Assembly (NCBI RefSeq): GCF_056712565.1
Contig: NZ_CM160072.1
DNA: 64,000 nucleotides
Reading direction: 5' to 3' (one strand)
The position numbers were made by a program. Below are positions 3,001-6,000 of the stretch, one piece after another; within the stretch, counting starts at the first letter, position 1, and every line of letters starts with the position of its first letter.

Positions 3001-6000
3001 TCAGAAATCGAAGGTGACGGATGCACGCACTTCGCGGCCGCCGCCGATAAACGCACTTGGGGAACCGTTATCGCCATCGGTACCCGATGGGAAGATAGAA
3101 GCCCAGTAATGTTTATCAAACACGTTGTTTACCACCACGCGGAAAGTGGTTGGGACGTTGCTCACTTTCGTGGTGTAACGCGTTCCCAAATCCCATGTGG
3201 TATAGCTGCTGGCGTAAGAGGTGTTGGTATCGTTCGCCGCGCGTTTGCCCGTATAATGGACGTTAGCGCTGTAAACCCATTCCGGTATGGACGGCAAACT
3301 GTATTCCGCCAACAGATTGGCCTGCACTTTCGGCACGCCGACAACCTGTTTATTGCTGGTTGAGGCATTCGCCGTATCTTTCAGTTTCGGGTCGAGGAAG
3401 GTCACGCCGCTGTAAATATTCAGCCCCTGCCACACATTCCCGGCAGCGGTTAACTCAAGGCCGTTGTTAACCTGGTTACCCTGCTCTTTATACACGTTAT
3501 CCGTATCAAGATAGGCAAACGGACGTTCCAGTCGGAACAGCGCGGCGCCTAGATTCATCTCGCCGATGTCCGATTTTAGCCCCACTTCATACTGCTTGCT
3601 GCGATACGGGTTTAGCGTTTGACCGGCATTTTTTACGCTCTCATCCGTCGGTGCGGTACCGCCCTGCTCCAGCGAATCGGCATAGCTAACGTAGGCCATT
3701 GTGTTAGGGGTAATTTTATACATCAGCGCGGCGTTCGGACTTAAACCATTTTCATCAACCTGGTTCGTTTGATTACCGTGCTTATCGTAGTTTTTAGTCT
3801 GCAGCCAGCTCTGGCTGAGATAGAACATTGCCGACCACTGCGGCGTAAATGTCACCGTATCGCCGAGCGTAACGCTCTGCTGAGTATTTACGCTGGAGCG
3901 GTATCGCGGCCCGCCGGTGCGGATTTTGCCATCGCCCTGCTCATCTATCGCATCCGGGTGATACATATTTGTTGTACCCCAGCTATAGCTGGAACCTGTT
4001 CCTTTGGCACTATAAAGCGACCAGACATATCCCGTGGTAGAAAGTGACAGATCGTGGCCGATAGAGCCGGTATCAATATGACCATTCAGCCCGGCGGTGT
4101 TGCTCAGGACGCGAAAACGTCCGGCAGCGGTGGAATCCTTCATCGAACGAGAGATATCGCCCTGATTGTTGAGTATTTTACTGGAAACACTACGCATCGC
4201 GCGGTCAGCCTGCTGCCAGCCCACGCCAGCGTTCATGGACCAGTCGTCGTTAAAGTAGTGGATCAGGCGAGTGCTGATGGTATCGGTAGTGAGGTCGTTG
4301 CCCGCAGTGCTGAGCGCCAGATTTTTGTCCTTCGGATTCGGCGCAGACGGCAGTTTGACGTTCGGCCCATAGTTAAAGCTACCGACATAGCCTTTCTGGA
4401 TAAATTCGTAATGGCTGGCGTCGAGCTGTAGCTGAGTGCCCGGCTGAATATTCCAGTCGAGCGCAACGGAAACGAGTTTGCGACGCAGCGTGCTGTCATC
4501 CACATTGCCTTCCCCTTCCTGATCAAGCAGGTTCACGCGATAGCCAAACCGTTTGTTTTCATCAAAATGGCCACCCAGATCGGCATGGCCGGTAAACGCA
4601 CTGCGGCTTTGATAGCCCAGCGTCACTTTACGCAGCGTCTCTTCGGTTGGGCGCTTCGCCACGAAATTAAACTGCCCTGCTGGGCTCGCCGGGCCGTACA
4701 GCGCGCCGGTCAAACTGTTAAGCACATCCATGCGCTCAAGCATTTCCACCGGAAACGCGGTTGTTGAAACGATATTCAGCCCGTCCAGACGGCTGTTGGC
4801 CACCACGCTGCCCTGCATCCCCCGACTTTGCGGACGCCCGACATCCATTCCACCGCGCGCCTGCATTTGCGTACTGGGAGAGTATTTCAGCATCTCGCTG
4901 ACGCTTTGCGCCTGCTGATTTTCAATCATCTCTTTAGTAACAGTGGTGCTGGAATATGGTGTTTCGATCCAGGATTTCGTTCCCAGCGGGCCGACATCTA
5001 TATCGTTCGTTTTGAAACCGGCACCGGCGGCAGAATCGGTGGTGTCGGCGGCGGTGTTGCCCGTGACAATCATTTCATCTTCAGAAGTAGACGAGGCATG
5101 AGCATGAAGCGGTATGAAAGACGCTAATGCTGGCAAAAGCGCAGCGAAAGTTATTTGAGTTTTCATGAATCACTGATCGTTATGTAAATATTTATATTAC
5201 GATCGGTGCATAGGCAAAATTATGATCCAGATCACACGTGAATGTAAGTTATTTACAAATTACGCTAACCTTCTGTCTCCGCTCTTTGCAGCATAAAAGT
5301 ATGGCGGCGCGTTGTTGAAAGCAGGAGCGGCCGGGTTGTCAGAAAGCTGGTTTGGACGCAAGTAATATATAACAACTCTGATTACCGCATACTGTCAGGA
5401 CAGTATCTACTTGAGCGTCCGCCTTTGGCACAAAGCGGACTGTCAGATTAGATTCAGACCTGTACTCATTAGCTGATACAAATCAGCCACATATACCTGC
5501 ATTCAAAATAATTTCAGAAAGATATTATCTCCGTGAATCCCCCGCCACCTTTCCGGTGCACGGGGTTTTGTCTTTTTTCACTGGGAATACATGTATGAAT
5601 CCGTCTGATGCCATTGAGGCAATTGAAAAACCGCTCTCCTCCCTGCCTTACCCGATTTCCCGTCACATCCTGGAACATCTGCGCAAACTCACCCGTCACG
5701 AACCCGTGCCTGGCATTATGGGTAAAAGCGGGGCCGGTAAATCCTCACTCTGTAATGCACTGTTTCAGGGGGAGGTCACCCCGGTCAGTGCACTCATGAC
5801 AGTGCTTCCCGGACATGCCGCCATCCATCTGATGACACGCCTGCAGGACGAACTGCGCACGGAGTCTGTCCGCACTCAGACCCGTGAACAGTTTACCGGT
5901 GCGGTGGACCGGATATTTGACACGGCGGAGAGTGTCTGCATTGCCTCTGTTGCACGCACGGTTCTGCGCGCCGTCCGTGACTCGGTGGTCTCTGTTGCCC

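Follow-up and report, generated by a model that had tools for sequence, protein, structure and literature searches.

A stem-loop between two accessory gene blocks

The stretch analysed here (the window) comprises 64,000 nt of contig NZ_CM160072.1 from NCBI RefSeq assembly GCF_056712565.1. Near its left end a TonB-dependent receptor gene with its ABC transporter diverges from a truncated YeeP-like GTPase gene, to the right of which lie genes for a dynamin-like protein, RdcB and a patatin; B2-type Escherichia coli strains such as NU14 and UTI89 are 100% identical to the window at this locus. An earlier, sequence-only reading had described ACTGTC/GACAGT palindromes and a bulged 10-bp stem in a gene-free region of about 390 bp between the divergent genes, and the gap indeed measures 389 bp up to a GTG at 5556 (428 bp up to the annotated ATG at 5595). 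The stem, at 5417–5440, is the element that we call H1. Its fold is as described, with 10 pairs, one bulged C (5423) and a GCA loop; as DNA it folds with −8.0 kcal/mol (z = −2.65), and the pattern GTCCGC-N6-20-GCGGAC occurs once in the window against 0.06 expected. The comparisons below suggest that H1 is probably a solo site of an integron-like cassette system, in which gene blocks are exchanged by a recombinase. H1 is often followed after 10–20 nt by a second hairpin with the same arms, whose centre in Enterobacterales is GAGCGA (H2).

The 429-bp spacer was compared with 5426 complete E. coli genomes, the set to which the E. coli genome counts below refer. Matches fell into discrete classes: the first covers spacer positions 1–274 and ends at window position 5440, the second runs from 250–260 to 429 and starts at 5416–5426, and the third runs from 332–335 to 429, with most E. 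coli matches starting at 5498–5501. When five contexts were aligned, the hairpin alone was common to left-type and right-type sequences. STEC1589 (locus L002) carries both sides: window positions 1–5440 correspond to its positions 835–6274 (99.9% identity) and 5417–7171 to 10519–12274 (98.1%), and the two alignments overlap by exactly 24 bp, the hairpin. The window equals STEC1589 minus 4.24 kb between two direct H1 copies, the order in STEC1589 being H1′-H2, TonB/ABC block (5.7 kb), H1-H2, 4.24-kb block, H1 and GTPase. About 864 E. coli genomes have the short form without the 4.24 kb and 169, including Seattle 1946, the long form.

The repeats had been placed at the left edge of an island; the TonB/ABC DNA further left is itself accessory, being present in 964 genomes, and the stem-loop is a joint between two accessory blocks. 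GCEC19 shows the complementary state, with the 4.24-kb block present and the 5.7-kb TonB/ABC block absent. Its junction lies inside an H2, where identity shifts from 88% to 99.7%. This H2 is chimeric: its 5′ arm is that of one STEC1589 copy, its 3′ arm that of the other, and the two meet in GAGCGA. H1, H1-H2 or H2 also stands between successive gene blocks in the cargo regions of several islands. No second H1-to-H1 indel was seen around the DUF2971 block among 60 matches sampled.

The GTPase flank is joined to any of eleven distinct left flanks. Nine versions of the 5′ arm occur among these junctions, and ten of the eleven have the 3′ arm AGAGCGGAC. One left flank, whose 5′ arm is GTCCGCTCT, is paired with three 3′ arms, and a different right flank goes with each of them. 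An arm thus stays linked to the flank on its side, which places the exchange between positions 9 and 17, that is, in TGGCAC. The inverted 9-bp arms and asymmetric 6-nt centre of H1, both conserved in an alignment of the family, fit the generic core site of tyrosine recombinases, which has an asymmetric overlap of 6–8 bp. Judged from these natural recombinants, strands would be exchanged within the overlap, the arms staying with their flanks, in what appears to be a conservative, site-specific reaction.

On plasmids, a junction of a CDF-transporter gene, H1 and relBE has relatives with either side alone (858 plasmids compared); with this junction as query (H1 at 502–525), one-sided matches start at 499–511 or end at 517–526. 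An independent island locus also gave partial matches, which begin either at the H1 5′ edge or at the universal upstream core of the GTPase genes (Table 1).

All 47 sites in E. coli island loci (~20 unique) are co-oriented and run in the same direction as the GTPase gene, despite cargo genes on both strands, and the copies are co-oriented at 16 of 16 multi-copy H1 loci from species-representative genomes. A strand bias by GC skew was seen in the alphaproteobacterial set only (51/77, p = 0.006) and was not significant in Enterobacterales.

Table 1 Features of the locus and of related loci (window positions unless a locus number is given)
Feature	Position	Strand	Remarks
TonB/ABC block, left boundary	~300 bp before window start (L001 3531–3554)		Degenerate H1 + H2
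TonB/ABC cargo block	1–5416	−	Right limit is H1; present or absent as a unit
TonB-dependent receptor gene	3001–5166	−	Left of the spacer, with its ABC transporter
Inverted repeat ATACTGTC-AG-GACAGTAT	5389–5406	.	8-bp arms, 2-nt spacer; private to the TonB-side flank
H1, putative solo recombination site and block junction	5417–5440	+	Only segment common to both homology blocks
H1 5′ arm GTCCGCCTT	5417–5425
H1 asymmetric centre TGGCAC	5426–5431
H1 3′ arm AAAGCGGAC	5432–5440
Second ACTGTCAG	5439–5446	+	Last 2 bases of the H1 3′ arm and first 6 of the right flank
H1-linked right-flank segment with inverted repeat GCTGAT-ACAA-ATCAGC	5441–5497	+	Precedes GTPase genes in the H1-type subset only
Universal upstream core of YeeP/YfjP/YkfA-type GTPase genes	5498–5594	+	Conserved in 80/80 metagenome loci
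GTPase promoter in the core	TTCAAA 5502–5507; TATTAT 5523–5528		15-nt spacer
Truncated GTPase gene, yeeP-like remnant	5595–6029	+	Opens the right-hand block; as annotated in the identical NU14 locus
GCCGC..GCGGCATGGAGGCGCCAGATG sequence downstream of H1	L131 ~4030–4150; L035 ~7360–7450; L085 after 4471	− (L085)	Related loci

A small tyrosine recombinase beside an H1-type site

The 4.24-kb block encodes a 200-aa tyrosine recombinase (PF00589; e.g. WP_001305361.1) with a catalytic domain only, recognisable by its HSLRRT and LLGH...VRYL motifs. It scored 58 bits with the XerA/integron-integrase model, for which the cut-off is 220, and fell under the cut-off of every curated Xer (XerC and XerD included), integron or invertase model; a search by sequence found no relative in the PDB. 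The family is a large one with unusually strong conservation: a search gave 7988 matches at E<1e-20, and identity is 76–96% across Pantoea, Providencia, Proteus, Erwinia, Sodalis, Idiomarina, Cycloclasticus and Pseudoalteromonas. A phage integrase was ruled out by its near absence from phage records (3 of 50,697, each with <60% identity).

The gene is accompanied by a site. At most about 10 nt past the stop codon lies a hairpin of its own, CAGGGCTG-N5-CAGCCCTG, followed by GTGCCA (variants GTACCA and GCGCCA) and then by an H1-type arm. This arrangement was present in 12 of 12 contexts read, which span seven genera and a gut-metagenome clone: three E. coli chromosomal sites, a prophage, a plasmid, Providencia, Proteus (mutS-rpoS region), Pantoea, Idiomarina, marine contigs of the Cycloclasticus type that resemble integrative and conjugative elements (ICEs), Pseudoalteromonas and the gut-metagenome homologue (59% identity). 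The Pseudoalteromonas hairpin differs in sequence and has the same structure. Across these contexts the proximal part of the site is constant, and the distal H1-type arm and flank vary.

Two loci show the site exchanging partners with H1. L234 and L129 are identical in their left flank, 5′ arm (GTCCGCTTC) and TGGCAC centre; beyond it, L129 has the H1 3′ arm and relBE, and L234 has the recombinase's own arm, followed by its gene. Diverged copies of the recombinase unit can be aligned exactly over a stretch that begins with the H1-type arm and ends at an H2-like site 39 nt before the ATG; the unit is therefore discrete, with a length of ~705 bp. It is found in 968 E. coli genomes (18%). At recombinase-bearing loci all ~24 sites face one way, antiparallel to the recombinase gene. 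The adjacency of gene and site makes the 200-aa recombinase, with a primary site just past its stop codon, the likely catalyst of the exchange.

An inverted repeat, ACTCAAATCTCC-N8-GGGAGATTTGAGT-ATGG, spans the ribosome-binding site and start codon of the recombinase gene (L002, 8977–9016; also in L222, L224, L225, L227, L229 and L230). From one genus to another its sequence changes but its pairing is retained, a hint that the recombinase is translationally controlled. The mutS-rpoS region is hypervariable in enterobacteria; in Proteus mirabilis (L230/L231, 3996–7330) this intergenic region holds the recombinase unit and several H1/H2-like sites, accompanied by small GNAT and Fic genes. Blocks beside H1 or recombinase sites often look like phage defence, as in the E2348/69 prophage (L232), plasmid pPEC165_1 (L234), L003 and L128, with genes for an AAA ATPase and HNH protein, DUF4297 and a coiled-coil protein, DUF4365, DUF2971, or type I restriction-modification.

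Distribution of H1 and related hairpins

H1 is present in 2438 of the E. coli genomes (45%), in 1–5 copies that all lie in accessory DNA, mostly ~170 bp upstream of GTPase genes. It was also found on 2604 plasmids, chiefly of Klebsiella (1621), Enterobacter (331) and Pantoea (148). A pattern search with CCGCNNNTGGCACARAGCGGAC gave at least 120 loci among species-representative genomes; the matches listed include Pantoea, Mixta, Erwinia, Rahnella, Rouxiella, Enterobacter, Klebsiella, Citrobacter and Leclercia, all of them with flanks of their own, and many Alphaproteobacteria (Pseudolabrys, Xanthobacteraceae), where the hairpin is near-identical and copies form arrays. The second hairpin of Alphaproteobacteria has the same arms around CGGGGGT or TGACCC.

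In Pseudolabrys, Xanthobacteraceae and other metagenome-assembled genomes from soil (L006–L125, e.g. L077, L092 and L094), many co-oriented copies of ATGTCCGCT(A/T)TTGGCACAAAGCGGACAT alternate with hairpins that have CGGGGGT or TGACCC loops, often ~44 nt beyond a stop codon. When translated, these arrays yield pseudo-open reading frames of the 'MSALPPKADI / VRFVPKADI' type. About 60 nt after H1, a Klebsiella IncFII plasmid, Pantoea brenneri and an Erwinia metagenome-assembled genome share a conserved GCCGC..GCGGCATGGAGGCGCCAGATG sequence (Table 1), which had no Rfam match.

A text search of papers with the hairpin sequence and the pseudo-translations found no published account of H1, and the sequence is absent from two surveys of repetitive extragenic palindromes (REPs). 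No description of the H1 system was found in the literature on pdif-like, integron-like and defence-cassette systems.

Regulatory, RNA and chance readings of the locus

The repeats had been suggested to be an operator for an island-encoded regulator, and the palindrome or the hairpin might more generally be an upstream element of the receptor or GTPase gene. Their place between divergent genes would suit this, as would a weak promoter-like match with a −35 TTGGCA in the hairpin loop; such matches are, however, no commoner than in shuffled sequences. The GTPase promoter lies in the universal core, its −35 ~60 bp downstream of the hairpin. Among 80 metagenome loci with a 98–100% identical GTPase, the core is kept in all, the hairpin-type upstream segment occurs in 14, and H1 is absent from 66. 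A study by genomic SELEX (systematic evolution of ligands by exponential enrichment) reports this promoter, as TTGAAA-15-TATCAT, at ykfA and yfjP (PMC3946193). The region upstream of yeeP in K-12 CP4-44 is truncated and has no hairpin.

On the receptor side, the TonB/ABC operon is orthologous (81–86% aa identity) to a core Citrobacter operon beside aroG. Upstream of the receptor, conservation with these orthologues is limited to ~120 bp before the ATG, including a palindrome at 5171–5208. The 5389–5406 repeat lies outside this control region and was not found upstream of the orthologous Citrobacter receptor genes; in E. coli its 963 carrier genomes are those that have the TonB flank, and it was not found without this flank. 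H1, for its part, adjoins unrelated genes everywhere. The operator proposal found no support in these comparisons, and we regard regulation of either gene by the palindrome or the hairpin as very improbable. A sigma-54 reading of TGGCAC was rejected, as there is no GC element at −12 spacing.

Two other structures lie in the intergenic region. The 5171–5208 palindrome, just upstream of the receptor start, has 19+19 nt (CACTGATCGTTATGTAAAT / ATTTATATTACGATCGGTG) and a core, CGATCGTAATATAAAT.TTTACATAACGAT, that is kept in orthologues from Citrobacter koseri, the C. freundii group and C. rodentium; it is a better operator candidate, perhaps Fur-like, than the 5389–5406 motif. A terminator-like hairpin at ~5540–5565, with a T-run to 5582 (region 5536–5586), lies between the −10 and the ATG at 5595 and is kept in 80 of 80 loci, which suggests a leader or attenuator of YeeP/YfjP/YkfA-type genes.

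A structured RNA was another suggestion, to which a terminator or insulator element may be added. The hairpin is stable, and alphaproteobacterial copies tend to lie ~44 nt after a co-oriented stop codon (52 vs 26). Enterobacterales copies, by contrast, have no orientation bias relative to genes (16 vs 12), the gene-orientation test being weak as a whole, and at the present locus no gene reads into the hairpin because the flanking genes diverge. No Rfam family was found for it, either at the gathering threshold in the window and 16 related loci or at E<=10 in 5150–5650; the sole match was a spurious long non-coding RNA with E = 3. There is no U-tract after the GC-rich stem as there would be in an intrinsic terminator, and a terminator scan reported only 5551–5565 and not 5417–5440. 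The stem pairs are kept in sequence with little compensatory change, so that covariation is uninformative: the stems are conserved, and covariation was not seen. An RNA role was thus not borne out, and we consider it highly unlikely. Elsewhere in the window, gathering-level Rfam matches were STnc240 small RNA (22963–23037), His operon leader (25776–25899), JUMPstart (52447–52485) and the algC RNA motif (62172–62221); from these matches, the window extends from the island into the his and surface-polysaccharide regions.

It remains to consider the other repeats. The inverted repeat around ACTGTCAGGACAGT (5391–5404) lies where it had been reported and is not the perfect 14-bp palindrome claimed, because its AG centre is not self-complementary. 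One match to ACTGTCNNGACAGT is present in the window (0.07 expected), and 7 of 100 shuffles gave one or more; the 5389–5406 repeat folds as single-stranded DNA with −3.9 kcal/mol (z = −3.7). A LexA-type reading of CTGT...ACAG was ruled out by wrong spacing. The copy reported as overlapping the stem is likewise present, as ACTGTCAG at 5439–5446, and is not conserved: the L127/L132 variant of the same right flank has ACAGCCAG instead. The window holds six ACTGTCAG copies against 1.04 expected, a number reached by none of 100 shuffles; five lie within 3.2 kb (5391–8595), at 5391, 5439, 6350, 7643 and 8588, with no extended motif found in common. Two of the three copies in the dynamin-like gene encode a repeated (S/T)DSK peptide. 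The excess may possibly reflect coding bias plus chance.

The copies do not form the single cluster that had been described: the palindrome belongs to the left block, the hairpin is common to both, and the 8-mer belongs to the right block. That all these repeats lie together by chance and have no biology would agree with the shortness of the palindrome and with an exact 8-mer repeat at about the chance level for the 434-bp region, where there are several 7–9-mers; it does not apply to the hairpin, for which family-wide conservation and the role as a junction already refute it. As an account of the whole, chance is extremely unlikely, while incidental occurrence is most probable for the 5389–5406 palindrome and the second ACTGTCAG. 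Of the earlier suggestions, the remains of a recombination site are supported, and this for the stem-loop only.

Recombination site or passive repeat

Several points weigh against H1 as a site of dedicated recombination. The window itself has no copy of the recombinase, and none lies within 8 kb at any of the ~120 H1 loci listed from species-representative genomes. In an all-against-all comparison, 7 of 173 breakpoints fell inside a hairpin against 1.6 expected, a moderate excess only, and 52 of 173 within 100 nt. A homologue with 49.5% identity has a hairpin after its stop codon and no recognisable GTGCCA centre. With arms conserved in sequence and little compensatory change in them, hairpin extrusion is conjectural, and the site model gives no role to H2 or to the H2-like end of the recombinase unit. 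The alphaproteobacterial copies stand in arrays like those of REPs and bacterial interspersed mosaic elements (BIMEs), and the hairpins could represent an older family of repeats, with the element merely targeting them.

These recombinase-distant copies, the REP-like arrays, the lack of covariation and an H2 to which the site model gives no role make a passive-repeat model a serious rival. H1 and H2 would then be REP-like palindromes whose joins arise by RecA-dependent, slipped-strand or gyrase-mediated illegitimate recombination, the recombinase element merely targeting hairpins. REP elements are established at the join-points of rearrangements and as targets of insertion sequence (IS) elements, and the model would accommodate the unique intergenic surroundings of H1 in Pantoea, Mixta, Erwinia, Rahnella and others, the high copy number and arrays of Alphaproteobacteria, the 10–12 H1 copies on each of the Pantoea megaplasmids, and the lack of a recombinase within 8 kb of most copies. 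It fits poorly with the exchange points, which cluster in the 6–7-nt centre and not across the shared 24 bp, and with the GCEC19 H2 chimera, which crosses where mismatched arms share GAGCGA only. Nor are REP/BIME pairs strictly co-oriented as these sites are, and the recombinase-adjacent site swaps partners with H1 exactly at the centre. On balance we hold the passive-repeat model to be unlikely, and site-specific exchange remains the preferred reading.

Comparison with known systems

A P4-type integrase att site was rejected: no tRNA or tmRNA was found in a scan of the window, the sequence is not tRNA-like, and the site lies between two accessory blocks. A close likeness is to integrons, which also have a tyrosine recombinase gene beside a primary site, a co-oriented array of hairpin-forming secondary sites between cargo blocks, blocks that are individually present or absent, and a hairpin with a bulged base. 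The H1-system recombinase differs in having 200 aa and a catalytic domain only, far below the XerA/integron-integrase cut-off, and its primary site lies 3′ of the gene rather than 5′. H1 sites, at 24 bp and with arms conserved in sequence, are also unlike attC, and neither H1 nor H2 has GTTRRRY / RYYYAAC boxes. H1 blocks can moreover be multi-gene with their own promoters, as in the 5.7-kb TonB/ABC operon.

The pdif (XerC/XerD) modules of Acinetobacter plasmids are likewise cargo modules bounded by short arm-centre-arm sites with a 6-nt centre, and like H1 blocks they are reshuffled between replicons (PMC12907356, PMC9947245). Unlike the uniformly co-oriented H1 and H2, pdif sites alternate in orientation, and for H1 a dedicated mobile recombinase is implicated rather than host Xer. 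The dif/pdif consensus used for comparison is 11-6-11 with a TTATGTTAAAT-like XerD arm, to which H1 does not conform; its GTCCGC... / ...GCGGAC arms have no resemblance to dif or to the XerD arm. The H1 system thus works like integron or pdif modules, yet lacks the features by which membership of either is recognised.

Neisseria dRS3, with Neisseria intergenic mosaic elements and minimal mobile elements, is also an abundant intergenic 20-bp repeat with 6-bp terminal inverted arms, found at the boundaries of islands and rearrangements and used as the integration site of an element-encoded recombinase. It differs from H1 in sequence (ATTCCC-N8-GGGAAT), in its Piv/IS110-type enzyme and in its restriction to one genus. 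REP/BIME elements share with H1 an imperfect, bulged palindrome of 20–40 bp that is intergenic, multi-copy and in some genomes arrayed. H1, unlike REP, has 1–5 copies per E. coli genome and a high copy number in other taxa only; it is strictly co-oriented, confined in E. coli to accessory DNA, and the same in sequence across bacterial classes. Many H1 copies start with (A)CGTCCGC, the GTC lying inside the stem, and a text search did not find the GTCCGC string in the REP (GTAG/CGTC) reference paper.

The sfx sites of the R64 shufflon have the 7-bp crossover core GTGCCAA (PMC4176322), which is the bottom strand of the H1 centre and matches the window copy only. They too have one conserved and one variable arm, and their enzyme, Rci, belongs to the tyrosine recombinases as well. 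The sfx right arm TCCGGTACGTGG (TCCGGTNNNTGG), however, has no match in H1 and no Rci is present; Rci has 384 aa and produces inversions only. The resemblance over 6–8 nt may be coincidence, and we treat it as a lead only.

Discussion

In the mechanism that we propose from these comparisons, H1 and H2 would join the gene blocks of CP4-type islands, prophages and plasmids in Enterobacterales, and recombination between two co-oriented sites, with exchange in the 6-nt centre, would lead to the gain or loss of a block. The window H1 would most simply be the product of an H1 × H1 excision of the recombinase-bearing 4.24-kb block, deletion rather than insertion being the presumed direction, and the remaining H1 would fuse the TonB/ABC block to the GTPase remnant. 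Because a lone H1 is left where the 4.24-kb block is absent, the site is better seen as a recombination scar and potential landing pad than as a regulator of its neighbours.

More tentatively, H1/H2 and the 200-aa recombinase may constitute a previously undescribed integron-like gene-capture system that spans the Gammaproteobacteria, its sites having expanded as a repeat in Alphaproteobacteria. It is conceivable, with similar reserve, that such a system shuttles blocks for defence, toxin-antitoxin, metal-resistance and iron-uptake functions among islands, prophages, ICE-like elements and plasmids. Cargo shuffling in CP4-type islands and large enterobacterial plasmids is now largely put down to IS elements and homologous recombination; if our reading is true, a dedicated 24-bp site and a mobile mini-recombinase would be a third route, acting on multi-gene blocks. 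Its reach would be wide, with H1 in ~45% of E. coli genomes, the recombinase unit in 18%, and the site on >2600 plasmids, mostly of Klebsiella. It would also supply a rule for delimiting cargo modules, many of them phage-defence-like, and the recombination would be directly testable by a simple assay. For UTI89/NU14-type strains, the H1 junction explains why a TonB/ABC iron-uptake block abuts a truncated GTPase gene, and the stem-loop points beyond them to a widespread, apparently undescribed family of sites with a testable enzyme.

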